Shown here piece by piece: positions 1 through 52,840 of a stretch of DNA of 52,840 bases. The stretch lies in the IMG/VR virus record IMGVR_UViG_3300045988_082043; one strand, given 5' to 3'. The notes beneath the pieces are model-generated. The model was given only the letters and a program-made list of their open reading frames with translations. It had not been told where the DNA came from and made no database searches. Numbering within the stretch: the first letter of the stretch is position 1; each line of letters opens with the position of its first letter. Made by a program: the position numbers and the translations under genes. The stretch is from a virus.

Positions 1-227
1 CCAACAGCGCCGAGGCGAACTACCAGAAGCAGTACGACTATTACAGGAACGGTAATAGCAAGGTCAAGTACCAGCACACGGCGACGACGAGCGCCTGCAG
101 CTGGTGGCTCCGCTCCGTGTATGCGAGCTACACGACCGCCTTCTGCTATGTGTCCACGGACGGGTCTGTGTACTTCAACTCCGCCGCCGGTTCGCTTGGC
201 TTCGCGCCGGGCTTTAAGGTGGCCTAA
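1..227 (+). CDS. 3' end of the DGR-target tail fibre gene (same gene as 51145..52840, joined across the circular contig junction)
   Basis: The open-ended frame at the window end continues here (nt 1-99 = 52742-52840). It ends ...CSWWLRSVYASYTTAFCYVSTDGSVYFNSAAGSLGFAPGFKVA with TAA at 225-227. WWLRS...GFAPGF is a C-type-lectin/DUF6273-like signature. Confidence 0.9.
   Translation, partial: NSAEANYQKQYDYYRNGNSKVKYQHTATTSACSWWLRSVYASYTTAFCYVSTDGSVYFNSAAGSLGFAPGFKVA
92..218 (+). repeat. DGR variable repeat VR1
   Basis: Colinear with TR 883-1009 (offset 791). Of 23 mismatches, 21 are at TR adenines (mostly AAY codons) and 2 are not (TR C960->T, T977->G). The 3' GC-rich block ggcttcgcgccggg is conserved. 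Confidence 0.9.
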
Positions 228-254
228 TCCCAAATCAGGCATCGAAAGTGGAGC

Positions 255-276
255 GGTGGGGGCGCAAGCCCCTACC
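255..276 (+). promoter_or_regulatory. GC-rich hairpin with GCAA tetraloop just downstream of VR1 (DGR target-recognition-type stem-loop)
   Basis: ggtgggggc-gcaa-gcccctacc: 9-bp stem including one G.T, GNRA-type loop at 264-267, 28 nt after the stop codon. Confidence 0.6.
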
Positions 277-386
277 AGCGAAACGCCAAGCACCGAGTAC
301 CCAAATCAGCACAGGCCCCATCCGGCGGGAGCGGCAACGCTCCTGCCGGTGACGGGGGCACCAAAACCGGAAGGGAGAACACCGAA

Positions 387-854
387 ATGGCAGTATACAA
401 ATCGCGGCGCAAGGACGCGGCGGCGCAATTTGTGGCAGACGCGCGAGAGCTGCGGAAGGCCACGGTGCGCATCGCACGGAAGTTTCCGGCCAGCTACAAG
501 TACGTGACCACGGGGCCGCTGCTGCAACTGGCGAGCGAGGTCTACATGAACGCGCTCAAGGGAAACAGCATCTACGTCCACAAGGACATGAGCGAGCGGG
601 ACTACGAGCTGCGGCACCGCTATCTGGCGGCGGCCACGGCCAGCGCCGACGCGCTGCTGGGCGAGATCACCTTCTGCTATGAGCTGGTGGACGACGGCAA
701 CAACTTCTTCCGCAACAAGGAGGAGTACGAGCGGACGTTCCAGACCTGGACGACACTGGCGAACAATGCGCTGTCGCGCCTGCGGGGTGTGATGGACAGC
801 GACAAACGCCGGTGGAATGGGTACATGAGAGACCGGAAAGCAAAAACACTATAA
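387..854 (+). CDS. avd: DGR accessory variability determinant (Avd-like helical bundle protein)
   Basis: 155-aa basic, helical ORF placed between VR1 and the TR, directly upstream of the RT. Both position and size match Avd. Confidence 0.75.
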   Translation: MAVYKSRRKDAAAQFVADARELRKATVRIARKFPASYKYVTTGPLLQLASEVYMNALKGNSIYVHKDMSERDYELRHRYLAAATASADALLGEITFCYELVDDGNNFFRNKEEYERTFQTWTTLANNALSRLRGVMDSDKRRWNGYMRDRKAKTL

Positions 855-882
855 ATCCCCGTAGGGCAAGTTCTGACGGCCA

Positions 883-1010
883 CGCCTGCAACTGGTGGCT
901 CCGCTCCGTGAATGCGAGCAACACGAACAACTTCTGCAATGTGAACACGGACGGGTCTGCGAACAACAACAACGCCTACAATTCGAATGGCTTCGCGCCG
1001 GGATTTAAGA
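883..1010 (+). repeat. DGR template repeat (TR)
   Basis: Non-coding copy of both VRs, with 13 AAY codons in the VR reading frame. It ends ggcttcgcgccggg-A-ttt, where both VRs carry C (TR1003). Followed by a 310-nt GC-rich structured spacer up to the RT start. Confidence 0.9.
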
Positions 1011-1321
1011 ACAACCTGGGGCCTGAACAAGTAGCGAAATGCGAAGCTGTGCCCCAAACCTTAAAGGAGAACTTGACCCTTGGAGACTGGCCCGCCATGC
1101 GCGGGCTTCATTCCTTAAATCACCACTCGATACGGAGGCCCGGACGCTTCTTGCATGGCCGGGGATTTACGGCGGCGTTGCCCCGGCTCCATGAGCAACC
1201 GTTATGCAGCTACTTCAAACCGCTGCGGCAGACGACGCAGGTGCGGGAGGTCATGCGACCCGCAAACCGCGCGCCAGACCGAACGCTGTACGGGTGGGAT
1301 ACTGCATTGGAGGCAACATGA

Positions 1322-2572
1322 TTGAATAGCCAAGAGAGGCACGAGGCCAGATACCAGCGGCGAAAGGCCCGGCGCGAGCAGAGGGCGCGGGAGGCCGGTG
1401 GAGCGAGCTTCGAGGAGGTCATGTCATTCGGGAACATCTGCAAGGCCGGAAAGAGCTGCTGTGACGGAGCGCGGTGGAAGACCTCCACCATCAACTTCGA
1501 GACGAACCTGCTGGGCGAAGCACAGGCGACCTATGACACGCTGCACTACGGAAAGCGCGTGTTCAAGGGCTTCCACAGCTTTGCGACGGTGGAGCACGGG
1601 AAGGTGCGGAACATCGACGCGCTGCCCATCCAGGAGCGGGCCATCCAAAAATGCCTGTGCAAGAACCTCCTGACGGAGGTTTATTCCAGGAGCTTCATCT
1701 ACGACAACAGCGCGAGCCTGAAAGACCGGGGCATGGACTTCCAGCTCCGGCGGCTCAGGAAGCACCTGCAGGACCATTACCGGCGGTATGGGACTGAGGG
1801 CGGTATCTACCAGTTCGACTTCAAGAATTATTTCGGGAGCCTGCCGCACGAGGAGATCAAGCGGCGGGCGCGGAAGAAGATCATGGACGATAAGTTATAC
1901 ACATTGTTCTGCGACTTTGTGGATGATTTCCGGCTGATGAAGACCGCCGACAAGGAAGCACACCGGGGCGTGGGCCTGGGCAGCGAGGTATCGCAGATCA
2001 TCGCCCTTGACTACGCCAGCCCCATCGACCATTACGTGAAGGACGTGCGCGGCATCCACGGGTACGGGCGGTATATGGACGACGGGTATGTGATCAGCAA
2101 TTCCTTGGAGGAACTGGAAGACATCAAGCGCAACCTGTACCGCCTGGCTGAGGCGCTGGGCATCGCCATGAGCGACAAGAAGAACATCATCACGCCGTTC
2201 CGGCACCACAGCTTCACCTTCCTGAAAATGCGGGTGACGCTGACGGAGACGGGCAAGGTGGTGATGAAGCTCAGTCGCAAGAGCATCCGTGCCATGCGGC
2301 GGAAGATGGATATTTTCCGGCGGTGGATGGACGAGGGCCGAATGGGACCGGAGGACGTGTTCCAGTCCTATCAATCGTGGAGAGCGCACGCGAAGCGGTG
2401 CAACAGCTACGACACGCTGCGCGCCATGGACGAGCGCTTCACGCGGATGTTCGCTGAGGAACTGGCCGGGCGGCGGAAGCCGTTCCCGTGCACGATGAAA
2501 GCCACACGGACCGGGTGCGGCTGGATATACCGGCGGCACGGAGCCGTCATTGAGGAGGAAATGTGCGCATGA
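1322..2572 (+). CDS. DGR reverse transcriptase
   Basis: 416-aa ORF with RNIDALPIQERAIQ, SFIYDNSASLKDRG, GVGLGSEVSQ (the [ILV]GxxxSQ motif typical of DGR RTs) and YGRYMDDGYV (YxDD). TTG start at 1322 is assumed; the exact start is uncertain. Confidence 0.9.
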   Translation: MNSQERHEARYQRRKARREQRAREAGGASFEEVMSFGNICKAGKSCCDGARWKTSTINFETNLLGEAQATYDTLHYGKRVFKGFHSFATVEHGKVRNIDALPIQERAIQKCLCKNLLTEVYSRSFIYDNSASLKDRGMDFQLRRLRKHLQDHYRRYGTEGGIYQFDFKNYFGSLPHEEIKRRARKKIMDDKLYTLFCDFVDDFRLMKTADKEAHRGVGLGSEVSQIIALDYASPIDHYVKDVRGIHGYGRYMDDGYVISNSLEELEDIKRNLYRLAEALGIAMSDKKNIITPFRHHSFTFLKMRVTLTETGKVVMKLSRKSIRAMRRKMDIFRRWMDEGRMGPEDVFQSYQSWRAHAKRCNSYDTLRAMDERFTRMFAEELAGRRKPFPCTMKATRTGCGWIYRRHGAVIEEEMCA

Positions 2573-2988
2573 AGTACATCACACACAACAGGTTCAAGAA
2601 GCTGGCCGCCTGCGGCGAGGTGCTGAACATCCCGTATGGTACGGAGATGGAGACGGCGGGCGACTTCATCATCACCCAGGAGGGAAAGCCGATCTGCTAC
2701 GCGACCAGCGAGGCCGCGAAGATGCACTTTGCCCGCAACGACGACGGGCAAGGGCTGGAACGCGGGAAGCTGACCTGGGCCATCGCGTACTCCCAGCGGG
2801 TGCGGACCGGCCCGAACGGACGGCAGCAGCGCTTCACCGAGGAGGAAATCGAGCTGCTGGAACGGAAGTGGGCACATTTCCTGCGGCAGGATGTGGAGGT
2901 CATTCTGTTCAACGAAGACTTTTTCGCGGCGGCGGTGCCGGAGCTGAAAGAGCTTGCGGACGCGCTGCACATCAAAGTGAGGAGGTAA
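2569..2988 (+). CDS. hypothetical protein
   Basis: ATG at 2569 overlaps the RT stop (ATGA). GAGGAGGA RBS at 2552-2559. 139 aa with no recognised motif. Confidence 0.6.
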   Translation: MKYITHNRFKKLAACGEVLNIPYGTEMETAGDFIITQEGKPICYATSEAAKMHFARNDDGQGLERGKLTWAIAYSQRVRTGPNGRQQRFTEEEIELLERKWAHFLRQDVEVILFNEDFFAAAVPELKELADALHIKVRR

Positions 2989-2993
2989 GACCC

Positions 2994-3380
2994 ATGTATG
3001 CAATTATCAGCAAAGGCGAGCTGCTGGCCCTGTGCGAGCGTCCCCGCTATGTGAAGCGGAACGAGGAGACCGGGGCCTATGTGGAGGCGGCGGAGGCTGA
3101 GGCCATCGGCATCGCCGTGGGCGGCGAGGTGTATAACCTGCCCGGCGGCACCGCCATCCCCGACGCGCCGGAGGCGCTGGCACAGGAGGGCGAGGCTGAG
3201 GAGTATGTGTTCCGCAACCACGCCCGCATCATCGAGAACGAGGAGACGACCAACGCCGCCTTCGCCGCCGTGGAGGAAGCCATGTGCGAGCTGGACAGCT
3301 CCTCGGAGGAGCGGCTGACGGCGGTGGAAGAAGCTCTTTGCGAGCTGGACAGCGCTGCAAACGGAGGAGGTGAAAACTGA
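2994..3380 (+). CDS. hypothetical acidic protein
   Basis: ATG 2994 after GGAGG. 128 aa, Glu/Ala-rich with an internal repeat EEAMCELDSS / EEALCELDSA. Confidence 0.55.
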   Translation: MYAIISKGELLALCERPRYVKRNEETGAYVEAAEAEAIGIAVGGEVYNLPGGTAIPDAPEALAQEGEAEEYVFRNHARIIENEETTNAAFAAVEEAMCELDSSSEERLTAVEEALCELDSAANGGGEN

Positions 3381-7334: not shown

Positions 7335-8411
7335 ATGAGCAGCGAAAAAGGACGGAGATTTTCCCATCTGCGGTGGAAGGACCGGCTGAAAATTGAAAGA
7401 ATGTTGAAGGAAGGCCACAAGGTAAAGGAGATCGCGGCGGCGCTGCACGTGGACAGCACCACCATCTACCGGGAGATCAAGCGCGGGAAGACGGTCCAGC
7501 GCACAACGGAGCTGATCGACCGGGAAATCTACTGCCCGGATGTGGCGGAGAACAAGTACCGGGCCAACCTCGCGGCCAAGGGTCCGGCGCTGAAACTGGG
7601 CAACGACTACAAGCTGGCGGCATACATCGAGCAGAAGATCGTGGAGGAACGGTATTCGCCGGAGGCGGTCCTGTTGAAGATCAAGGAGGAGCGGCTGACC
7701 TTCTCCGTGACGCTCTCCAAGTGGACGCTGTATTCCTACATCACCAAGGGCGTGTTCCTGGGCGTGACGAACAAGAGCCTGCCGCGCAAGGGGAAGAAGA
7801 AAAACAAGGGGTATCGGAAGGTCCGGGCCGCGCACCTTCCACAGGGCGACAGCATCGAAGACCGCCCGGAGGAGATCGCGGAACGAGCGATGCCCGGAGA
7901 CTGGGAGATGGACACGGTGGTATCCTGCAAGAAGGACGCGGCCCGGCTCCTGGTGCTGACGGAGCGGATGTTCCGCCAAGAGATCATCATAAAAATGCCG
8001 GACGGCACTACTCAGAGCGTCGTCCGGTCGCTGGACAGGCTGGAAAGGAAGCTGGGGTCGCGGCTGTTCCGTCGGATATTCCGCACGATCACCGTGGACA
8101 ATGGCAGCGAGTTCGCAGACTGCGAGGGCATGGAGCGGTCATGCCTGACAAAGCGGGCGCGGACGCACATATACTATTGCCATCCGTACAGCGCCTTCGA
8201 GCGCGGGAGCAACGAGAACGCGAACAGCCTTATCCGGCGGTGGCTCCCGAAGGGGACGAAGCTCTCCGAGGTATCACAGGCGGAGATCAAGCAAATCCAA
8301 ATCTGGATGAACAACTACCCAAGGATGGTTTTAGGCGGGCGCTGTGCGAACACGGCGCTGGCCGAGTGGATGGCGGCGGAGGGCGTGCTGCTCCCGTTCG
8401 TTCATATTTAA
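7335..8411 (+). CDS. IS30-family DDE transposase
   Basis: 358 aa. N-terminal HTH (LKIERMLKEGHKVKEIAAALHVDSTTIYREIKRG), then catalytic region WEMDTV...ITVDNGSEF...YYCHPYSAFERGSNENANSLIRRWLPKG, a typical IS30 DD(E) pattern. Confidence 0.9.
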   Translation: MSSEKGRRFSHLRWKDRLKIERMLKEGHKVKEIAAALHVDSTTIYREIKRGKTVQRTTELIDREIYCPDVAENKYRANLAAKGPALKLGNDYKLAAYIEQKIVEERYSPEAVLLKIKEERLTFSVTLSKWTLYSYITKGVFLGVTNKSLPRKGKKKNKGYRKVRAAHLPQGDSIEDRPEEIAERAMPGDWEMDTVVSCKKDAARLLVLTERMFRQEIIIKMPDGTTQSVVRSLDRLERKLGSRLFRRIFRTITVDNGSEFADCEGMERSCLTKRARTHIYYCHPYSAFERGSNENANSLIRRWLPKGTKLSEVSQAEIKQIQIWMNNYPRMVLGGRCANTALAEWMAAEGVLLPFVHI

Positions 8412-15089: not shown

Positions 15090-15135
15090 GCGCGTGAGCG
15101 GCACGTACCTATATAAATTAAAGGAGGACAAGCAC

Positions 15136-16023
15136 ATGAGCGAATTGACGCTGCGATTTGGGGAGGCCCGGCTGCACGTGGAGGGCGACGCCGATCTGGT
15201 GGCGCGCGAGCGAGCGGCGTTCCTGGAACACCTGGGCCGACTGGACCGCCAGAGCGAGAAGGCCGGTGAACTGCTGGCCGTGCTGCTCCGGGCCGGGCGC
15301 GCCCCCGAAAAGGCCGAGGAGCCTGTGAGCAAGAAGGCAGAGCCGGAGGAACCGGCGGAGGAAAAGAGTGCGACGCAGGACGACTTATGCAGGCTGCGGA
15401 GCATCCACGTCGGCTTCGTCAGCCCGTCCCAGTTGAAGCGGGCGAAGGCCGAGGGCAAGCTGGACCACCTGCTCGCCCAGCGCGACGAGATCGAGGTGCC
15501 GCTGGATACCGGCGGGACCGTCACCGTGGTCTGCTGCTACGTGACGCCCACTTCGGCCCGCTTCGTCTTCAAAGACTGCTGGGACGAGGGCGTGATGAAC
15601 GACGAGGCGACCAACAAGACCGGGTATTTCAAGAGCAAGGGCCGTCAGCACGTTTTGGAGGACATCTATCCGCACATCGCGGCGGAATGGCGGGAGATCA
15701 TCGTACCCAGGACCTTCGTGGAGACCATCGAGGGCGAGCGGGTGGAGTATTCGGACCCGCTGTGGCTGCCTTCGGCGACGGACGTGTTCGGCACGCCGGA
15801 CGGGGCCTGGTGGAACGACGGAGACGACGACTTCCAGCTCCCGGTTTTCACCTGTGAGCGCGACCGTGTGAAGGAGTGCGGCGACAAAGGAACGTATTTC
15901 TGGTGGCTCCGCTCCGTGTATGCGAGCTACACGACCGACTTCTGCAGTGTGTACACGGACGGGTCTGCGGACACCTCCAGCGCCTACTTTTCGATTGGCT
16001 TCGCGCCGGGCTTTGACATCTGA
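15136..16023 (+). CDS. second DGR target: non-structural protein with C-terminal DUF6273/CLec-like variable domain
   Basis: AAGGAGG lies 8 nt before ATG 15136. 295 aa. The C-terminus ...DPLWLPSATDVFG...TYFWWLRSVYASYTTDFCSVYTDGSADTSSAYFSIGFAPGFDI is homologous to the tail-fibre C-terminus. No signal peptide or TM was seen by eye. Confidence 0.85.
   Translation: MSELTLRFGEARLHVEGDADLVARERAAFLEHLGRLDRQSEKAGELLAVLLRAGRAPEKAEEPVSKKAEPEEPAEEKSATQDDLCRLRSIHVGFVSPSQLKRAKAEGKLDHLLAQRDEIEVPLDTGGTVTVVCCYVTPTSARFVFKDCWDEGVMNDEATNKTGYFKSKGRQHVLEDIYPHIAAEWREIIVPRTFVETIEGERVEYSDPLWLPSATDVFGTPDGAWWNDGDDDFQLPVFTCERDRVKECGDKGTYFWWLRSVYASYTTDFCSVYTDGSADTSSAYFSIGFAPGFDI
15898..16012 (+). repeat. DGR variable repeat VR2 (remote, ~15 kb from the TR)
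   Basis: Colinear with TR 890-1004 (offset 15008). This span has 17 differences and an 18th (TR1007 -> VR2 16015) lies just 3' of it. All 18 are at TR adenines. Same GC-rich 3' block and the same A->C at TR1003 as VR1. Confidence 0.9.
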
Positions 16024-16039: not shown

Positions 16040-16063
16040 TCTCCGGTGCGTAAGCGCCGGAGA
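16040..16063 (+). promoter_or_regulatory. hairpin with GTAA tetraloop just downstream of VR2
   Basis: tctccggtgc-gtaa-gcgccggaga: 10-bp stem (one G.T), starting 17 nt after the stop. Same type and position as the hairpin after VR1. Confidence 0.6.
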
Positions 16064-16078
16064 GCAAAGGAGACAGCC

Positions 16079-16444
16079 ATGGTCACATTCGATATTTGCA
16101 AAGGCAATCCGGGCGCGCTGACGTTCGTGATGCTGGCCTATGAGTACAATCCGTATCGCGCCGAGGCAGCGTTCCGGCGTATGCAGAACAACGGCATCAC
16201 CGGGGACAAGCTGTATATGCTCTGGAATGACTGCTGCGACCGTGATGTGGAGCAGGCATTGGTCAACATGGAGTGCATGAGCATGGAGGAGATCGTGTCC
16301 CACATCAACTACGAAGGCGGACGGGGCATCCCCATTCCGAAGAAAGAAAATCTGTGGTGGCTCCGCTCGCCGTATCCGAGCCAGATGGGCGGTGAGCAGA
16401 TCGACGAGACCGGGCGCATCACAAGAAATCCATATCTGTTCTAA
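16079..16444 (+). CDS. hypothetical protein with a truncated WWLRSP (DUF6273-like) motif
   Basis: 121 aa, ATG 16079 after AAAGGAG. Carries ...KKENLWWLRSPYPSQMGG.... Nt 16355-16368 (tggtggctccgctc) match the TR/VR 5' segment exactly. Confidence 0.6.
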   Translation: MVTFDICKGNPGALTFVMLAYEYNPYRAEAAFRRMQNNGITGDKLYMLWNDCCDRDVEQALVNMECMSMEEIVSHINYEGGRGIPIPKKENLWWLRSPYPSQMGGEQIDETGRITRNPYLF

Positions 16445-21548: not shown

Positions 21549-22517
21549 TTATTCGGTAAGGCCCAGGGCGCGGCGGGCGGCGGCTTCGGCGTTGGGGGTA
21601 AGCTGGCGCTGCCATGCGCTGTACTGGGGGGACCAGCGGAAGCCGTTTTGTTTCAGAGCGGCGCGGGTGTCCTCGTCGGGCTTTTCGTCAAAGAGGATTT
21701 GGAGACGGTCCGCTTCCAGGTTGCGGACGATCTCGCCGCCGGGGAACTTTGTACTGTCGGCGGGCTGTTCGGCCTGCTGGGCGCGCTTGTCCAGCTCGTT
21801 GAGGCGGGCCTGGACCCGCTTGATCTTGCCGCGAAGGCTGGTCAATTCGTAGTCGGGGACGGGAGACTTGACCCAGGGGCAGCGTTCCTTCGTGTCGGCA
21901 AAGCTGGCGGTGAGCTTGGCGGCGGCCTCGGCGGTCAGGCCGGGGAAGCCGTCGAAGGATTTGTGCTTGCGGTAGAAGGCGTTCAGGGCCTTGCTTTCGT
22001 CGAGCTTGTTTTGGAGCTTTTGGAGCTGGTCGGCGAGTATTTCGCGGGCGTGAGGGTCGGCCAGATCGACCGGGCCGGAGCCGACGGCCTCGATCTTGGT
22101 CAAGATGGCCTTGATCTCGTCGTACTCGTTCCAGAGGGTGCCTTCACGGGACATCTGCTTTTCGTGCTTGCGCATATTGTAGCCGCCTGCGCCGGAAATG
22201 AACTGGCTGGGATAGCTGGCCTGGTTGCGGTTGTAGTCGTTGGTCCACTCAGCAAGGCGGCGGGCGTAGCAGTCAAGAAGCGTGTCGAGCTTGTCGTGGT
22301 AGAAGGGGCTGACGCGGGCCTTTTTGGCATCCACCAGGGCGGCGGCCTTGTCTACGGCGCGGCGGTATTCCGCCGTTGCGCTGCCGGGCTTGTAGTCGCT
22401 CATGTGGACGCAGTAGTGAGCGTTGCGGGCCGTCTCCTCGTTGATCTCGTAGTAGCGGGCGGCGGGCGCGGGCGCTTCGGCGGTCTGCGGGCCGATCATG
22501 CTTGTTTGTTCGTACAT
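21549..22517 (-). CDS. DUF3560-like protein
   Basis: 322 aa. The C-terminus RLQILFDEKPDEDTRAALKQNGFRWSPQYSAWQRQLT matches, from memory, the DUF3560 C-terminal module common in conjugative-element leading regions. Confidence 0.6.
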   Translation of the reverse strand: MYEQTSMIGPQTAEAPAPAARYYEINEETARNAHYCVHMSDYKPGSATAEYRRAVDKAAALVDAKKARVSPFYHDKLDTLLDCYARRLAEWTNDYNRNQASYPSQFISGAGGYNMRKHEKQMSREGTLWNEYDEIKAILTKIEAVGSGPVDLADPHAREILADQLQKLQNKLDESKALNAFYRKHKSFDGFPGLTAEAAAKLTASFADTKERCPWVKSPVPDYELTSLRGKIKRVQARLNELDKRAQQAEQPADSTKFPGGEIVRNLEADRLQILFDEKPDEDTRAALKQNGFRWSPQYSAWQRQLTPNAEAAARRALGLTE

Positions 22518-22611
22518 TTTGTGTACCTCCGTTTTGTGTTTTGGGGTTTCGCTTATGGGGTCGGGTCGCTTTGTTGTCCGGTGCGGCCCGCGAAGGTGTC
22601 CGGCGGCGGGG
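22518..22611 (-). repeat. intergenic repeat module R1 (structured core + CA-rich leader/RBS)
   Basis: Fills the whole gap between two genes. The 57-nt core 22555-22611 is identical to 23527-23583. The leader reads ...CCCCAAAACACAAAACGGAGGTACACAAAATG on the coding strand. Confidence 0.8.
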
Positions 22612-23122: not shown

Positions 23123-23488
23123 TTAGTGGGTGGGACACTGGAACAGGACGCAAAGATCAGCCTTGCGGGCGATCTCGTTGATGCGCTGGGCGGTCGTACT
23201 GCCGAGGGAAAAGACGGCGATAAAATTCACGTGGCAGTCGTCCGGGGTGAAGATCGGCTTGCACTCGACGCCCAGGGCGCGAAGATGCGTTGTGATGTTG
23301 GCGGCCTCCGTGACCTCGTGCAGCGCGTCGGCGTAGCACTCGCGGTAAAGGTCCACGCCGTATTTGTCGCGGATGGCGTCGAGCTGGTCCACGTCGAAAA
23401 GCTCGGTGAACGGCTCGTATTTGTGCGGGGTGGACAGGTGCGCGGCGATGATCTCGTTTCTGCAAGACCAGTATCCGGCGGTTTTCAT
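23123..23488 (-). CDS. hypothetical protein
   Basis: 121 aa, preceded by repeat R2 and its leader. Confidence 0.65.
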   Translation of the reverse strand: MKTAGYWSCRNEIIAAHLSTPHKYEPFTELFDVDQLDAIRDKYGVDLYRECYADALHEVTEAANITTHLRALGVECKPIFTPDDCHVNFIAVFSLGSTTAQRINEIARKADLCVLFQCPTH

Positions 23489-23585
23489 TTTGTGTTCCTC
23501 CTGTGTTTTAGTTTTGGGTTTTGCTCATGGGGTCGGGTCGCTTTGTTGTCCGGTGCGGCCCGCGAAGGTGTCCGGCGGCGGGGGA
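23489..23585 (-). repeat. intergenic repeat module R2
   Basis: Same organisation as R1, with an identical 57-nt core at 23527-23583. Confidence 0.8.
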
Positions 23586-23756
23586 TTACTCGGCTGGGCT
23601 GTAAATGCTGTAATCGAGCGGAGCGCCGCAGCAAGGGCAGGTATCCGGCATATCGCCGTTGTCGTCGCAGAACAGAGCCGCGCAGCATACGCCACAACGG
23701 GTGTTTCCGTGCCGGTCCTCGTAGACGAGGCACTTTCCATCTTTCCATTCACTCAT
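23586..23756 (-). CDS. small zinc-ribbon protein
   Basis: 56 aa from ATG 23756 (MSEWKDGKCLVYEDRHGNTRCGVCCAALFCDDNGDMPDTCPCCGAPL...), with the conserved AGGAGGAACAAAACATG leader. Confidence 0.55.
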   Translation of the reverse strand: MSEWKDGKCLVYEDRHGNTRCGVCCAALFCDDNGDMPDTCPCCGAPLDYSIYSPAE

Positions 23757-23870
23757 GTTTTGTTCCTCCTGTGTTTTGGCTTTGGGTTTACCCATGAGCG
23801 CCCGCCCCGGCGGGGGCGGCTGGACTTGCACCAGCGGCGGCGGGGTGCCGTCGGCCTTGCGGGTTTTGGG

Positions 23871-24791
23871 TCAGGCGACGCGGAAATAATAGGCGTTCTT
23901 TTTGCCACTCCACTTGCCACCGGCGGCCTCGATTTCTTTTTCGTGGGGCTTTGTGTCTCCGGCGAGCCAGACCACCGGCGCGGCGGTCGTTGCGCCCTTG
24001 ATGGTGGCGGTCAGGCCGTCCACCTCGGCCCAGCGGGCCGCGATGATCTCGGCGGCGGTTTTGGGTTCGGGCTTCTGCTCGGCGGGCTGTTCCGTCTTGG
24101 TTTCGTGCAGCTCGGCCAGCTTGGCTTTCAGCTCGTCGATCTCGTTGGCTGCCCGGTACAGATCGCCGCGCAGGGCGGCGGCTTCTTCCTGAGCCTGGGC
24201 CAATTCGGCGCGGAGCTTGTCGGCCTCGCCGGTTTTGATGTTGTCCTCGGCGGCCTCGGTGAAAAATGCCTTGATGGCGCGTGCCGCGTTCGGCTCGGCC
24301 CTGATGGGCATGACCACGGCGAACGGCTCGTCGTTGATGTAGGCCAGGGCGGCGGAGATCGCGGACGTGGTGCGGAGCTGGGCGGCGGGGTGAAGCGCGT
24401 CAATGAACTTTGTGTCATAGATCGCGGCGAAATCGGCGTCGGCGTTGTAGTAGCAGGCGGCGGGGGCCTTCTTCGCCTGGACCGTGAATGGGGCGCGGGC
24501 CAGCGGCGCGGCGTCGGCGGTGTCGCGGACGGTATCGGCGAACAGCTTGACCAGATCGAGCTTGTGCGCGTCGTCCTCGTGCTTGCCGTCCTTGTCGAAG
24601 GTCCACGCGCCCGGCTCACAGCAGGTCAACGGCTGGACCGTGGCGGCGTACTCCGGCGCGTTCATGGTGCAGAGAAGATAGCCGTTGCAAACGTAGATTG
24701 TGCCGTCCTCGGAGACCTGGCAAAAGATACGCTCGGAGCCTTTCAGGGCCTTCGCGGTGTTGGTGGTGTAACGTCCGGTAAACTTTTTCAT
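23871..24791 (-). CDS. hypothetical protein with coiled-coil and a C-terminal K..AGGKWS..K.AYYF module
   Basis: 306 aa. The C-terminal ~35 aa (VVWLAGDTKPHEKEIEAAGGKWSGKKNAYYFRV) resemble the C-terminal module of the DUF3560-like protein. Confidence 0.65.
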   Translation of the reverse strand: MKKFTGRYTTNTAKALKGSERIFCQVSEDGTIYVCNGYLLCTMNAPEYAATVQPLTCCEPGAWTFDKDGKHEDDAHKLDLVKLFADTVRDTADAAPLARAPFTVQAKKAPAACYYNADADFAAIYDTKFIDALHPAAQLRTTSAISAALAYINDEPFAVVMPIRAEPNAARAIKAFFTEAAEDNIKTGEADKLRAELAQAQEEAAALRGDLYRAANEIDELKAKLAELHETKTEQPAEQKPEPKTAAEIIAARWAEVDGLTATIKGATTAAPVVWLAGDTKPHEKEIEAAGGKWSGKKNAYYFRVA

Positions 24792-24887
24792 GGGGTGTTC
24801 CTCCTGTTGTGTTGTTTTGGGGCTTGCTGTATGGGGCTGGGTTGCTTTGTGCGGTGCAGCCCTGCTAAAGTGTCCGCTTGTGCTGGG
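24792..24887 (-). repeat. intergenic repeat module R3 (diverged copy)
   Basis: The 60-nt core 24831-24890 aligns with R1 and R2 at about 70% identity, including two compensatory pair changes. Same leader type: ACAACAGGAGGAACACCCCATG. Confidence 0.7.
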
Positions 24888-46633: not shown

Positions 46634-47774
46634 TATCAAAGAGCTGGCAAATGTGCCGGAGATCAGCTTCATCGAAAACATGAGCCTGCAGGAGACGGAG
46701 GAGCTTGTGCGGGCAAACTACACGCGCATCTTCAAGGAGCTTACCGGGCAGGACGCGGAGCTGGGCGAAGCGGACGCGAAGAACCTGATCATCAAATCGT
46801 TCAGCCTTGTGCTCTACCAGGTGATGCAATATGTGGAGGCCAAGGGACGGGCGGAGCTTTTGAAGACTTCGACCGGCGACGCGCTGGACGCGCTGGCGGC
46901 CCTGTTCGGCATCACACGGCAGGAGGCCCGGCGGGCCACGTGCATCGTGCGCTTCACCTTGTCCGACCGGCGGAGCGAGCCAGCGGCCATTCCGGCGGGT
47001 ACGCGGGTGAAGACCCAGGACGGGAAATACTTCAACACTGTGGACTATGCAGAGGTCGCGGCGGGCGAGCTGACCGTGGACGTGGATGTGCAGGCGGAGG
47101 AAGCCGGAGCGGAGAGCAGCGGCATCGCCGCCGGAGAGATCGACACGCTGGTGGACCCCATCCCCTACGTTGCGAGCGTGGAGAGCATCGAGGCGAGCAC
47201 GGGCGGGCTGGACATCGAGGACGACGACGGCCTGACGGAACGGGTGTGGCTGGCCCCCAGCAAATACTCCTGCGCCGGGCCGCGAGACGCCTATGCCTAC
47301 TACGTGAAGGAATGGCGGACGGACGTGGACGACGTGCAGATCGTCAGCCCGGAGCCGTGCGTGGTGCACGTCTATGTGGTGCTGGACGGCGGCGTGCTGC
47401 CCACGGAGACGGAGCGGGAGGAACTGGCCGCCTACCTCAACGGCGACACCATCCGCCCGCTGACGGACATCGTGAGCTGCCCGGCGGCGGAGGAGGTCCC
47501 TTACGACATCAGCCTGACCTACTGGATCGCCAGCAGCGACCAAAAGAGCGCGGGCACCATTCAGGCCCAGGTGGAGGCGGCGGTAGACGCCTATGAGAGC
47601 TGGCAACGCAAGATGGGCCGGGACATCAACCCGACCGAGCTTGTGTGCCGGGTCCGCGCGGCGGGGGCCAAGCGCGTAAAGCTGGCGGCCCCGGCGGACA
47701 TCGTGATCGAAAAAACGCAGCTCCCGAAGCGGAACACGCGCACCGTGACCTACGGAGGGCTTGAGGATGATTAA
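46626..47774 (+). CDS. baseplate J-like protein
   Basis: 382 aa, follows gp25-like as in P2, Mu and PBSX. Confidence 0.8.
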   Translation: MSNIKELANVPEISFIENMSLQETEELVRANYTRIFKELTGQDAELGEADAKNLIIKSFSLVLYQVMQYVEAKGRAELLKTSTGDALDALAALFGITRQEARRATCIVRFTLSDRRSEPAAIPAGTRVKTQDGKYFNTVDYAEVAAGELTVDVDVQAEEAGAESSGIAAGEIDTLVDPIPYVASVESIEASTGGLDIEDDDGLTERVWLAPSKYSCAGPRDAYAYYVKEWRTDVDDVQIVSPEPCVVHVYVVLDGGVLPTETEREELAAYLNGDTIRPLTDIVSCPAAEEVPYDISLTYWIASSDQKSAGTIQAQVEAAVDAYESWQRKMGRDINPTELVCRVRAAGAKRVKLAAPADIVIEKTQLPKRNTRTVTYGGLEDD

Positions 47775-48681
47775 AAGTCTGCGTCAAGCCCGCATTACAG
47801 ACGGCCTTCCGAGGGTGTTGGCGAGACAGGAATGGGTGATCGCCCTGTCCGAGGCCCTGGGGCTGGCCCTGGGGAAGACGCTGGACTACACCGACGAGAG
47901 CCAAATCTACACACGGCTGGACACCGCGCCGGAGACGGTGCTGGATGTGCTGGCCGTGGACTGGAAGATCGACTGGTACGACACGGAACTGACGGTGGAG
48001 CAGAAGCGCCGCATCGTGAAGACGGCGCTGACGGTCCGGCGGCTGATGGGCACAGCGGCGGCGGTGAAGCTGCAGGTGCACGCCATCTACCCGGAGGCCA
48101 CCGTGACGGAGTGGTTCCAGTACGACGGGAGGCCTGGATGCTTCCGGGTGAGCCTGCCGCTGCCGAAGGAAGGCATCACGGCGGCGGAATACCGGCGGCT
48201 CAAGACCGGCATCCTGACCACGAAGAACGAGCGCAGCCACCTGGACGTGATCGACATTCAGCACGAGTGCGAGGCCATGGTGATCACAGGCGGGTGCTGC
48301 TCCATGAGCCAGATCATCGAGGTCTGGCCGGAGCTTGTGAGCGAGCTGGAAGTGACAAGCGAGCGCATCGCAGGCGGCGCGGCCAGCATGAGCCAAACGG
48401 CGGAGGTCTGGCCGGAGCTGACGGAGGCGCTGGAAATCCTGGCATACCGGCACACCGGCGGAGCCGTGAGCACCGCGCAGGCCGTGGAGGTCTGGCCGGA
48501 GCTGGCGGCGGTGGTAGAGATCACCGTGACGCGGAACACCGGCGGCGCGGCGCACACGGACCAGGCGCTTGAGGTATGGCCGGAGCTGACAGAGCAAATC
48601 GAAGCAACGACGGAGCTGGACCGGGGCGGCGGGACCGCTGCGAGCCAGGTCGTTGAAATATACCCGGAAGGGGGAGGATGA
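47767..48681 (+). CDS. tail protein I-like (P2 gpI / XkdU-like) with C-terminal 28-aa tandem repeats
   Basis: ...ETVLDVLAVDWKIDWYD..LTVEQKRRIVKTALTVRRLMGTAAAV..., then 5 repeats of (..EVWPEL....E.......GGA.S). Confidence 0.75.
   Translation: MIKSLRQARITDGLPRVLARQEWVIALSEALGLALGKTLDYTDESQIYTRLDTAPETVLDVLAVDWKIDWYDTELTVEQKRRIVKTALTVRRLMGTAAAVKLQVHAIYPEATVTEWFQYDGRPGCFRVSLPLPKEGITAAEYRRLKTGILTTKNERSHLDVIDIQHECEAMVITGGCCSMSQIIEVWPELVSELEVTSERIAGGAASMSQTAEVWPELTEALEILAYRHTGGAVSTAQAVEVWPELAAVVEITVTRNTGGAAHTDQALEVWPELTEQIEATTELDRGGGTAASQVVEIYPEGGG
48290..48680 (+). repeat. 84-bp in-frame tandem repeats (~5 copies) inside the gpI-like gene
   Basis: gaggtctggccggagct recurs at 48319, 48403 and 48487, with gaggtatggccggagct at 48571 and a degenerate copy at 48655. 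The period is exactly 84 nt. Confidence 0.85.
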
Positions 48682-48682
48682 A

Positions 48683-49627
48683 ATGGACACTGAAAACGTA
48701 GTTGTCACCAAACAGGACCGAAAGTACAAGACCCTCGTGACCGACATCGGCAACAAGAAAATGACCAACGCCATTCTGAACGGCAAGAAGGTCAACGTCG
48801 TCATGGCGGCGGTGGGCGACGGCGGCGGAAGCTACTACCTGCCCACGGCGGATATGACCGCGCTTGTGCATGAGGTATGGCGCGGGGCCATCGCCAGCAA
48901 AGAGATCAACAGCAAATCCTCTAACATGGTGGACGTGAAGTTCGTGCTGCCGGGGACCGTGGGCGGCTTCACCGCGCGCGAAGCTGCCCTGATCGACGAC
49001 GAGGGCGACATGATCGCCGTGTGCAACCTGCCGGACACGGAGAAGGCAGCCATCGAGGACGGCATCGCCGCTGCGCTGACCATTCTCATGCACATCGTTA
49101 TGACCAACAGCGACGCGCTGACCTTCACGCTGGACCCCACCACCGACACGGCGAGCGCCGTGTGCGTGGCCTTTACCATCCCACACGAGGCATGGCAGAG
49201 CACGACCGGCGCGGAGGACGACGAGAGCGGCGGCACCTACCCGTGCCGGGCTGATGTGGTGTGCGACGAGGCGACCGCCATGCACACGCCCATCGCAACG
49301 CTGGACAAGGCGTGCCTGGCGGCGGCCAAGGCATGCGAGCTGTGCCCCACGGTGGAGACTGCAAGCGGAGTGCTGCGCTTTTGGGCGATGAAGGTGCCGG
49401 ACGGCGAGCTGACCGGAAGCGTACTGCTGGTCGGCCAGGGCGGCGGAGGCAAGAGCGGCGACGGGAGCTACACCCTGCCGACGGCAACCCCCTTCCGCCT
49501 GGGCGGCGTGAAGGTGGGCGACGGCCTGACCGTGGACAACGAGGGCAAGCTGTCGGTCGATGCGGCCAACACTGAGGAGACCACCGGCGCGCTGAACGAA
49601 GTGTTCGGCGCAGAGGACGGCAAATAA
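48683..49627 (+). CDS. tail fibre protein with a P2 gpH-like N-terminal (tail-collar) domain
   Basis: VVVTKQDRKYKTLVTDIGNKKMTNAILNGKKVNVVMAAVGDGGGSYYLPTADMTALVHEVWRG is the typical fibre N-terminal attachment domain. Confidence 0.75.
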   Translation: MDTENVVVTKQDRKYKTLVTDIGNKKMTNAILNGKKVNVVMAAVGDGGGSYYLPTADMTALVHEVWRGAIASKEINSKSSNMVDVKFVLPGTVGGFTAREAALIDDEGDMIAVCNLPDTEKAAIEDGIAAALTILMHIVMTNSDALTFTLDPTTDTASAVCVAFTIPHEAWQSTTGAEDDESGGTYPCRADVVCDEATAMHTPIATLDKACLAAAKACELCPTVETASGVLRFWAMKVPDGELTGSVLLVGQGGGGKSGDGSYTLPTATPFRLGGVKVGDGLTVDNEGKLSVDAANTEETTGALNEVFGAEDGK

Positions 49628-51144: not shown

Positions 51145-52840
51145 ATGGCATTAGGACAAGTGAATGTTCCCGGCGCTGCCGGGATGGACGCCGTAGAGGC
51201 GAAGCAGGCCGCTCAGGCGGCCAAGGAAGCGGCTGAGGCCGCCCAGCGCACCGCAGAGAGCGCCGGGAAAACGGCGGACGCCGCCATGCAGAAGGCTGCT
51301 GACGCCGAGACGGCGGCGGGCAACGCGGACAGCAAGGCGGACGCGGCCCTGGATGCGGCCAACACCGCCGCCGGTGCCGCGACGGCTGCCGCCAGCGCCG
51401 CCAGTGCCGCCGAGGAGAGCGCGAACAGCGCCAACACGGCGGCCAACGAGGCCAAGACTGCGGCGAGCAACGCGCAGAAGGCGGCGAACGACGCGCTGGA
51501 AGCCGTGACCAAGCTGACCAGCGTAATCAACAGCGTACCCACCCAGGCGGGCATCTTGACGTACACGGGCGCGGCACAGTCCCCATCGTGGAACGGGTAC
51601 GACACGGAGAAGCTGACCATCGGCGGAACGACCAGCGGCACCAACGCAGGCAGCTACGTTGCGACCTTCACGCCAAAGGAGGGCTACGAGTGGGCCGACG
51701 GCACCAAGACCGCCAAGAGCGTGACCTGGACGATCAGCAAGGCCAGCCTGTCCGTACCCGCGCAGAGCGGGACGCTGACCTACACGGGAAGCGCACAGTC
51801 TCCCCAGTGGAGCAACTACGACAGCAATAAGCTGACCATCGGCGGGACGAGCACCGCCACCAACGCGGGAAGCTATGCCGCGACCTTCACGCCGAAGGCC
51901 AACTACCAGTGGTCCGACGGCAGCACCAGCGCCAAGAGCGTGACCTGGGCCATCGGCAAGGCGGCGGGTAGTTTGACGCTGGCGAAGAGCAGCGTGACGC
52001 TGAACATCTCCTCGCTGACGGAGAGCGTGGCCGTGACCCGCGCGGGCGACGGCGTGATCAGCGCCACGTCCAGCAACACCGCCACGGCAAGGGTGGAGGT
52101 GAGCGGCACCAGCGTGAAGATCACCGGCCTCAAGGCGGGCACCGCTAAGATCACTGTGAAGGTGGCGGCGGGCACCAACCACACCGCGCCCAGCGACAAG
52201 ACCATCAACGTGACGGTCAGCCTGCCCGACACGAGCCTGGCAAACAACACGCCGGACATCATCGCGGCGGCGGCCAAGTCCGGCCAGGCGGCGAACTATT
52301 GGAGCGTGGGCGACAAGGTGGGTATCGCGGTCAATGGCTCTTTCGGAGGACTGAGCTATAACAACACCGTGTACGCCTTCATCCTGGGCTTCAACCACAA
52401 CAGCAGCGTGGAGGGCGGAAACAGCATCCACTTCCAGTTCGGCAAGACGGCGGCTGGTGTGGACATCGCGTTCGTGAACAGCTACGGCTCGACCAGCACG
52501 GGCTTCTGCATGAACACCAGCAACACCAACTCCGGCGGATGGAACAACAGCTATATGCGCAAGACCATCTGCCCGGCGTTCCTGGCGGCCCTGCCGACGG
52601 CCTGGCAGAACATCATCGCGGCCTGCACGAAGTACAGCGACAACACGGGCGGCGGCTCCAACACCGCGAGCTACGTGACAGCGACCTCGGACAAAATCTG
52701 GCTGCTGAGTGAGATGGAGGTCCAGGGTACGAGAAGCTACGCCAACAGCGCCGAGGCGAACTACCAGAAGCAGTACGACTATTACAGGAACGGTAATAGC
52801 AAGGTCAAGTACCAGCACACGGCGACGACGAGCGCCTGCA
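51145..52840 (+). CDS. DGR-target tail fibre (5' part; continues at 1..227, about 607 aa in total)
   Basis: ATG 51145 after GGAAGGAG. No in-frame stop to the window end (checked codon by codon). Ala-rich coiled coil, two ~65-aa tandem Ig-like repeats (LTYTG.AQSP.W...TNAGSY.ATFTPK), a BIG2-like segment, then the DUF6273-like domain leading into VR1. Confidence 0.9.
   Translation, partial: MALGQVNVPGAAGMDAVEAKQAAQAAKEAAEAAQRTAESAGKTADAAMQKAADAETAAGNADSKADAALDAANTAAGAATAAASAASAAEESANSANTAANEAKTAASNAQKAANDALEAVTKLTSVINSVPTQAGILTYTGAAQSPSWNGYDTEKLTIGGTTSGTNAGSYVATFTPKEGYEWADGTKTAKSVTWTISKASLSVPAQSGTLTYTGSAQSPQWSNYDSNKLTIGGTSTATNAGSYAATFTPKANYQWSDGSTSAKSVTWAIGKAAGSLTLAKSSVTLNISSLTESVAVTRAGDGVISATSSNTATARVEVSGTSVKITGLKAGTAKITVKVAAGTNHTAPSDKTINVTVSLPDTSLANNTPDIIAAAAKSGQAANYWSVGDKVGIAVNGSFGGLSYNNTVYAFILGFNHNSSVEGGNSIHFQFGKTAAGVDIAFVNSYGSTSTGFCMNTSNTNSGGWNNSYMRKTICPAFLAALPTAWQNIIAACTKYSDNTGGGSNTASYVTATSDKIWLLSEMEVQGTRSYANSAEANYQKQYDYYRNGNSKVKYQHTATTSAC
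52742..52840 (+). repeat. terminal overlap of the circularised contig
   Basis: 99 nt identical to nt 1-99. Confidence 0.95.

Follow-up and report, generated by a model that had tools for sequence, protein, structure and literature searches.

An apparently active two-target diversity-generating retroelement with an RT-2 spacer RNA in a phage of gut Oscillospiraceae

We analyzed the virus record IMGVR_UViG_3300045988_082043, a stretch of 52,840 nt that is here referred to as the window, and found a diversity-generating retroelement (DGR) at its beginning. We are highly confident that it is a complete DGR of the architecture known from phage BPP-1, in which a target gene is followed by avd, then a template repeat (TR), then the gene of a reverse transcriptase (RT), and that this apparently active element rewrites the tips of two lectin-like proteins at the adenines of its TR. 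An earlier interpretation made from the letters alone, here called the sequence-only reading, had proposed a complete DGR lying across the contig junction. In fact, the TR, the first variable repeat (VR1) and the open reading frames (ORFs) are all located where it had placed them, and the first target gene runs from 51145 to 52741 and continues from 1 to 227. The gene order, which had been described as that of BPP-1, is the same as mtd-avd-TR-brt. The coordinates of all features are compiled in Table 1.

The TR is in a non-coding position outside any long ORF, and it can be aligned with VR1 colinearly and without gaps over 127 nt, as previously claimed. We counted 22 mismatches between them. 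TR adenines account for 20 of these, and the remaining two are at C960 and T977, so that the earlier figures of 23 and 21 had to be lowered by one each. A comparison of mismatch classes confirmed the enrichment at TR adenines, with mismatches at 20/34 adenines but merely 2/93 other bases (Fisher p = 2.4e-12). The statement that these mismatches are nearly all within 13 AAY codons also holds, since the TR has 13 in-frame AAY codons and 18 of the 20 adenine mismatches fall in them. Altogether, 18 codons of the TR are rewritable (the 13 AAY codons included), which allows about 2e18 protein variants, and no stop codon is reachable. Moreover, a further copy of the TR, VR2, is present 15 kb away at the 3' end of a second target gene, with 17 mismatches to the TR, 16 of them at adenines (16/32 adenines versus 1/86 other bases, p = 3.7e-10). 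Both VRs end 6–9 nt before the stop codon of their target gene. Within the window, the 14-nt block GGCTTCGCGCCGGG is confined to the TR, VR1 and VR2, and the base after it distinguishes the TR (A at 1003) from VR1 (C at 212) and VR2 (also C).

Other candidate repeats were rejected. The third "WWLRS" copy at 16350-16381 is not a VR3, as it has 79/127 mismatches to the TR, is non-colinear, has no GC block and does not vary from sample to sample. It belongs to the degenerate C-terminal piece of a DUF6273 domain ("WWLRSPYPS") that ends a 121-aa ORF at 16079-16444 (+), the next ORF after target gene 2, and this ORF is possibly a decayed former target. The two AAC codons at 1010-1015 were also considered as part of the TR and discarded, because VR1 would then need a C-to-G change and these positions are constant between samples.

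We further assessed the variation across independent assemblies encoding the same RT, which is a comparison between samples and not a mapping of reads. The exact RT protein is present on 21 contigs, from which ten places were retrieved, and the RT protein is identical in ten assemblies. Nine of the loci extend over the TR; eight have it in unchanged form, and the contig L007 has one altered base. By comparison, the eight VR1 alleles (the window and seven loci) are all different, and 28 of their 31 variable columns are TR adenines. Each VR1 allele departs from the TR at 16–22 of 127 nt, whereas the 300 nt upstream of VR1 have merely 2–4 differing positions among the same loci, and thus the change in the VR far outpaced the background divergence. 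For VR2, ten loci (L011–L020) were retrieved via the invariant neighboring 121-aa protein. Together with the window they provide 11 alleles with 32 variable columns, 31 of which are TR adenines, and the other one (TR883) is outside the VR2 homology. Because variation in the VRs is almost restricted to TR-adenine columns and the flanks are near-identical, the element, as judged from these sequence comparisons, is or recently was active.

The same alleles bear on where the transfer of sequence ends. Where the TR has A1003, every one of the 19 VR alleles has C, even though GGA and GGC are synonymous, and the last mutable adenines (TR986/987) are immediately 5' of the GC block. Because of this fixed difference and this position, the 3' limit of transfer probably lies within or at the block, which is also the case in BPP-1. 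The block and the A/C difference would then act as the initiation of mutagenic homing sites (IMH* in the TR and IMH in the VR), and the sequence-only reading, which had seen GGCTTCGCGCCGGG followed by A in the TR and C in VR1 in this way, agrees with the enlarged set of alleles. In addition, three assemblies have a breakpoint where the mutable tract or the TR/VR repeat begins or ends. The terminal overlap of the window ends at base 99, which is the first mutable adenine; L007 starts at window position 197, the base after the last mutable adenine; and the contig L009 starts at TR893, inside the TR. These breaks suggest either VR heterogeneity within samples or graph breaks induced by the TR/VR repeat. 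The variety is also large on the protein level. When homologues of target 2 are clustered at 90% identity, up to 10,526 distinct sequences fall into one cluster (P0128), and an alignment of target homologues displays a constant scaffold, WWLRSV.A....FC.V.T.GSA....AY.S.GFAPGFDI, with the free residues exactly at the AAY positions.

The RT is translated from a TTG start with GGAGG 8 nt upstream, and it contains GVGLGSEVSQ and YMDD. Its LGSEVSQ at aa 219-225 fits the signature [I/V/L]GxxxSQ that DGR RTs possess in motif 4, where group II intron and retroviral RTs have QGxxxSP (PMC7826257). The protein matches RVT_1 of Pfam and phrog_1423, and its closest solved relative is the RT of BPP-1, bRT (8ub7; E = 3e-11, residues 31-373 colinear with 10-323), ahead of a group II intron RT (4.5e-6). 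The assignment to the DGR type, made earlier from the two motifs, is thus supported by this signature and by the search against solved proteins. The pairwise identity to bRT is 24%. R96 of the RT is aligned with R74 of bRT; this residue and one other have been shown to promote mutagenesis at adenines (PMC7826257). In NCBIfam, the RT has far-sub-threshold matches only, namely to group II intron RT (64 bits versus a cut-off of 300), Drt3a and retron RT. An Arg/Lys-rich N-terminal extension, MNSQERHEARYQRRKARREQRAREAGG (aa 1-30, encoded by 1322-1410), and about 40 extra C-terminal residues are both absent from bRT and could be additional RNA-binding surfaces for the larger RNA described next.

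The spacer separating the TR from the RT gene is 312 nt long and is mostly occupied by an RNA of the Rfam family RT-2 (RF03077), which was matched over the full model (1-222) with 91.9 bits versus a gathering cut-off of 40. Even at E <= 1, RT-2 is the sole Rfam match in window positions 1-3000. RF03022 (Phage_DGR) is not matched there, and among the phage spacers compared it was found in BPP-1 only. We also found RT-2 in the TR-RT spacer of six relatives, whose RT identity goes from 100% down to 41%. Four of them, L024, L025, L028 and L030 (RT identity 88%, 85%, 55% and 41%, respectively), are all ordered target(VR)-accessory ORF-TR-RT-2 RNA-RT, and 71/73 of their TR/VR mismatches are at adenines. 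RT-2 is present in the TR-RT spacer of the phages Roos and Pioen (175 bits) and Shimadzu (145 bits) as well. In total, it abuts or lies upstream of a DGR-type RT in 10/10 instances examined, and it starts 2–44 nt after the TR in the five instances whose repeats were checked. The identity of these RNAs rests on Rfam covariance-model scores, which we relied on because the alignment of seven RT-2 instances by MAFFT was poor and RNAalifold gave a partial structure only. The spacers upstream of the RT in L034 (phage Lelie), L035 (nd12) and L036 (FP_Brigit) have no Rfam match, and further undescribed classes of DGR spacer RNA probably exist. We also noticed a type II hammerhead ribozyme (RF02276, 42.5 bits versus a cut-off of 37) at 7535-7599 (+) of L030, a contig of a Clostridiales metagenome-assembled genome (MAG), about 3 kb downstream of its DGR RT.

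The paper that described the RT motifs tied only RT-10 to the DGR of BPP-1 and speculated that other RT motifs may serve DGRs or retrons (PMC5737381, Weinberg et al. 2017). In the literature that we searched, no paper linking RT-2 with DGRs was found. We consider it probable that RT-2 is the cis-acting RNA, both primer and scaffold, of a broad clade of DGRs in Clostridia phages, and that it co-evolved with an Avd-like family that sequence models miss. If so, RT-2 would fill the same function as the spacer RNA of BPP-1 by means of another fold, and would offer a testable second model of how RT-Avd complexes of DGRs select and prime their template. Moreover, RT-2 and the accessory family together would be a new marker for DGR finders.

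In BPP-1, the target is defined by the IMH together with a GC-rich downstream hairpin that has a 4-nt loop (PMC3240598). Comparable hairpins follow both VRs of the window, 36 nt after VR1 and 22 nt after VR2, with stems of 9–10 bp, loops of GCAA or GTAA and no T-run. In L024 and L025, the sequences of the stems are changed and the pairing is kept by compensatory changes. The hairpin after VR1 is not a terminator-like site, since a promoter and terminator scan of 1-3000 found the only such site on the minus strand at 1972-1959. The same scan found no sigma-70-like promoter sites in 1-3000.

The accessory gene, which ends 28 nt before the TR, encodes a 155-aa protein, and the members of its family are about 155 aa in length and have no annotation. 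AlphaFold2 (with an alignment of 44 sequences) predicted a four-helix bundle with a predicted local distance difference test (pLDDT) score of 91. The best PDB folds for this model are 2gsc and 2rld, with a template-modeling (TM) score of about 0.8 on target length and a root-mean-square deviation of 2–3 Å, well ahead of generic bundles. Both structures belong to the four-helix-bundle family with which Avd has been compared. Among viral models (BFVD), six of the best fold matches are named Avd-like. The isoelectric point (pI) of the protein is 9.7 and the mean of its family 9.57 ± 0.17. Since Avd proteins have a pI of 9.5 ± 0.7 and the CH1 class of accessory proteins is acidic (PMC5758913), the charge agrees with Avd and not with CH1. 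By hhalign, the protein has a probability of 79% to the protein annotated as "Avd" in the Roseburia phage Shimadzu and of 97% to the equivalent ORF of the Faecalibacterium phage Roos, and a homologue is encoded by the ORF that takes its place in L030. The designation as Avd-like in the sequence-only reading is therefore borne out by fold, charge, position and the homology to the Shimadzu "Avd", while none of the Avd sequence models backs it. We regard the protein as Avd-like by predicted fold, charge, position, co-conservation and homology to annotated relatives, and not by membership in a sequence family. This is an Avd-like accessory family that current Avd profiles miss, and because they miss it, DGR finders would report the cassette without an accessory gene. 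The ORF at 2563-2988, which overlaps the RT stop codon, was rejected as a conserved DGR accessory gene, as it does not resemble the corresponding ORF in phage Roos.

By analogy with BPP-1 (PMC6182149, PMC3240598), a mechanism can be proposed for these parts. In that phage, Avd is bound by a noncoding segment that lies downstream of the TR, and through this segment bRT-Avd can synthesize complementary DNA (cDNA) in a template-primed, processive manner (PMC6182149). In the window, a complex of the RT and the Avd-like protein may bind the transcript of the TR and the RT-2 RNA, and cDNA synthesis primed from the spacer RNA would copy the TR, with random nucleotides inserted opposite the 31 adenines of TR 890-987. 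The cDNA would then replace the homologous tract of VR1 (99-196) and that of VR2, and on the 3' side the transfer would end inside the GC block common to the TR and the VRs. Targeting would depend on this block, the fixed C after it and the GNRA hairpin 22–36 nt downstream of each VR. The expected outcome is variation of the C-terminal DUF6273 lectin-like domains in a 607-aa protein whose gene closes the tail module and in a 295-aa protein of the replication module.

Both target proteins possess the Pfam domain DUF6273 (target 1, aa 458-604, E = 5e-18; target 2, E = 8e-13), in which the VR occupies the C-terminal end. This agrees with the earlier prediction of a DUF6273-type target, and the WWLRS and GFAPGF that it was based on belong to the invariant scaffold of the homologues. 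DUF6273 has been described as C-lec-like (PMC10743442). The 607-aa target 1 starts with the ATG at 51145 after GGGAAGGAG and has an Ala-rich N-terminus, two 219-nt tandem Ig-like repeats (51534-51962) and then DUF6273. The tandem repeats are 77% identical and encode He_PIG-like modules, and the same duplication is present in L024 and L025. Target 2 is encoded in a replication/methylase module. It might be a non-virion protein, possibly expressed in the lysogen, in which case the DGR would diversify a host-facing or secreted lectin too; we hold this to be less likely than the proposed role of RT-2. Some homologues of target 2 are about 430 aa in length with an extra N-terminal extension.

The name "tail-fibre gene" that the sequence-only reading had given to target gene 1 stands as far as position is concerned, since this is the last gene of the baseplate/tail-fibre block and directly follows tail-fibre-like genes, as Mtd of BPP-1 does; its identity as a tail fibre is inferred from that position. 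It may instead be a Hoc-like or "tentaclin"-type adhesin, that is, a capsid or tail decoration or a secreted lectin which serves adherence to mucus or carbohydrates and not host range. The sole strong family match of the protein fits no name, as phrog_37900 (full length, E = 3.6e-184) is a PHROG of unknown function, and among the weaker PHROG matches Hoc-like head decoration (4.5e-10) precedes tail fibre (3.8e-6). The Ig-like repeats of the He_PIG type, the separate tail-fibre gene with a collar domain further upstream (48653-49627), and the Hoc-like and tentaclin proteins among published DUF6273 targets (PMC10743442; bioRxiv 10.64898/2026.05.08.723808) point in the same direction, and the location at the end of the tail block points to a tail fibre. 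We consider the adhesin possible and somewhat doubtful.

The nature of the whole element can also be questioned. The RT might be that of a group II intron, a retron or a DRT/Abi system, and the three repeats might be paralogous lectin segments under diversifying selection or gene conversion. The sub-threshold NCBIfam matches mentioned above would fit this explanation, but the non-coding TR is invariant, the substitutions are adenine-specific and directional, and the RT has LGxxxSQ instead of QGxxxSP (PMC7826257) and bRT as its best solved relative. Moreover, the RNA next to the RT gene is RT-2, RNAs of introns or retrons were not detected, and the whole cassette is kept with the same pattern in relatives. 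The chance that the element is not a DGR is thus negligible in our judgment. It is very unlikely, though less so, that it is a fossil, a formerly active DGR that is now silent and whose VR differences are inherited alleles of separate lineages. The variation was compared between assemblies, and DGR phages such as Lelie show no VR signal in reads (PMC11792537), both of which would agree with a silent element. Against this, the RT ORF is intact with YMDD and encodes the same protein in ten assemblies, the TR is conserved in 8/9 loci, and VR1 alleles are all different at 16–22/127 nt from the TR next to flanks with 2–4 nt/300. Also in disagreement with a silent element, contigs of three samples break exactly at the edges of the mutable tract, and a target 2 cluster holds 10,526 distinct sequences.

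Several results weigh against the reading as an active, BPP-1-like DGR with lectin-like targets. VR1 of the window has two non-adenine differences (TR960 and TR977), and the TRs belonging to the VR2 loci L011–L020 are assumed to be identical to the TR of the window. As the comparison is between and not within samples, the alleles of different assemblies could owe their differences to activity in the past. The 155-aa protein has no match in Pfam, NCBIfam or PDB, either by sequence (phmmer) or by profile; hhalign with bAvd gives a probability of 0.5%, and bAvd is not among the best 50 fold matches of its model. For the target proteins, a PDB profile search and hhalign against Mtd found nothing, and the AlphaFold2 model of target 2 has a mean pLDDT of 61, with values below 50 across the VR, and gave only noise in Foldseek against PDB. 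Finally, priming as in BPP-1 is applied here by analogy, because the spacer RNA is not of the BPP-1 type (RF03022).

Table 1. Features of the retroelement and its two target genes in the window.
Feature	Position	Strand	Description
Target gene 1, 5' part	51145..52840	+	607-aa ORF; runs across the circular junction; 52742-52840 is a copy of 1-99
Target gene 1, 3' end	1..227	+	Stop codon TAA at 225-227
VR1	92..218	+	Mutable tract 99-196 = TR 890-987
GC-rich IMH-like block GGCTTCGCGCCGGG and fixed C (212) in VR1	198..212	+	
Hairpin after VR1	255..276	+	GGTGGGGGC-GCAA-GCCCCTACC; GNRA loop
Accessory gene	387..854	+	155-aa basic protein, predicted four-helix bundle; Avd-like by fold
TR	883..1009	+	127 nt; 34 adenines, 31 of them within 890-987; 13 AAY codons
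GC block of TR	989-1002	+	Followed by IMH*-type A at 1003
Spacer RNA, Rfam RT-2 (RF03077)	1017..1317	+	Directly 3' of TR; ends at the ribosome-binding site of the RT gene
DGR reverse transcriptase	1322..2572	+	416 aa; LGSEVSQ and YMDD
Target gene 2	15136..16023	+	295 aa from ATG; 309 aa from GTG at 15094; C-terminal DUF6273
VR2	about 15900..16014	+	TR homology from TR892; GC block 15997-16010, fixed C 16011
Hairpin after VR2	16040..16063	+	TCTCCGGTGC-GTAA-GCGCCGGAGA; GNRA loop

The contig is circular, since bases 1-99 are identical to 52742-52840, and the circular unit is 52,741 bp. According to PHROG matches, genes for terminase, portal, major head, tail sheath, tape measure, baseplate and tail fibre are located upstream of target gene 1. 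A CHAP/LysM lysin gene follows downstream of the RT gene, and methyltransferase, replication-initiator, HD and RecU genes are neighbors of target gene 2. The carrier is a 52.7-kb contractile-tailed phage or prophage of gut Oscillospiraceae. At 99–100% identity, the RT is present on contigs labeled Oscillibacter sp. and in one MAG labeled Desulfovibrio (label unchecked), while its relatives at 55–88% identity are from Oscillospiraceae MAGs, one Eubacteriales MAG and Flintibacter muris. The exact sequence of the 121-aa protein after target 2 occurs in 5,217 blocks of the collection. As this gene was found on contigs of up to 765 kb, the phage also occurs integrated. From the number of these blocks and the size of the largest target 2 cluster, it seems to be common in gut metagenomes. 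Among 50,697 phage records, no match to the DNA of the cassette was found, and the RT has at most 40% identity to any RT of these records.

Repeats of other kinds are present elsewhere in the window. An 81-nt direct repeat, G/T-rich on the plus strand and 91% identical between its copies, is at 22531-22611 and 23503-23583, and related copies of 38–44 nt are at 23482-23525, 23750-23793 and 24785-24828. Each copy adjoins the start of a minus-strand ORF, such as 21549-22517 (primase) and 23871-24791, and they look like repeated regulatory or leader regions. In addition, four tandem 84-nt (28-aa) repeats with the core GAGGTCTGGCCGGAGCT are located at 48289-48606 (+) within the baseplate/tail gene 47761-48681.

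Compared with the DGR of BPP-1 (mtd-avd-TR-brt), the cassette of the window has the same gene order and strand arrangement, and its RT is homologous over the full length, with [I/V/L]GxxxSQ and YMDD in both. In BPP-1 too, the 3' ends of TR and VR hold a GC-rich block, right after which the two differ; a GC-rich hairpin whose loop has 4 nt lies downstream of the VR (PMC3240598), and a structured non-coding RNA is located between TR and RT (PMC6182149; RF03022). However, the RT of the window is only 24% identical to bRT, 88 aa longer and equipped with an Arg-rich N-terminal extension, and its accessory protein has no detectable sequence similarity to bAvd. The spacer RNA is RT-2 of about 300 nt instead of Phage_DGR of 133 nt, and the targets are DUF6273 proteins without detectable similarity to Mtd. 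The window also has two targets, one of them 15 kb from the cassette, and its IMH/IMH* distinction is a single fixed base.

The Faecalibacterium phages Lelie and CP11 (PMC11792537) and the phages nd4 and nd12 (PMC10743442) have comparable two-target DGRs. They are temperate phages of gut Firmicutes, as is the carrier in the window, and have one TR with a large and a small DUF6273 target, whose VRs are at the C-terminal end of DUF6273. In those studies too, adenine-specific variation between cognate genomes was the evidence of activity. The differences are that the RT of the window is about 30% identical to that of Lelie and about 32% to that of nd12, that the spacers of these two have no RT-2 match, that nd4 and nd12 have one VR near the 5' end of its gene while both VRs of the window are at the 3' end, and that the host lineage of the window, Oscillibacter/Oscillospiraceae, is a different one. 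Roos and Pioen (Faecalibacterium) and Shimadzu (Roseburia) share with the window the RT-2 RNA between TR and RT (145–175 bits). These phages also have a homologous accessory protein upstream of the TR, annotated as "Avd" in Shimadzu, and DUF6273 targets have been reported for Roos and Pioen. In the latter two phages, VR heterogeneity in reads was shown experimentally (PMC11792537). Their RTs and that of Shimadzu are 33–36% identical to the RT of the window, the phage backbones differ, and a single VR has been reported for Roos and Pioen compared with two in the window.

Remote DGR targets were known already (PMC5758913), and two-target DUF6273 DGRs of gut Clostridia phages have been published, so that the element of the window is a well-built example of a known system and leaves the understanding of DGRs unchanged. 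It provides a natural allele series for two lectin-like targets under one template. What is modestly new is the link between RT-2 and DGRs, which assigns a likely role to an uncharacterized Rfam family, together with an Avd-like family that is invisible to Avd profiles.

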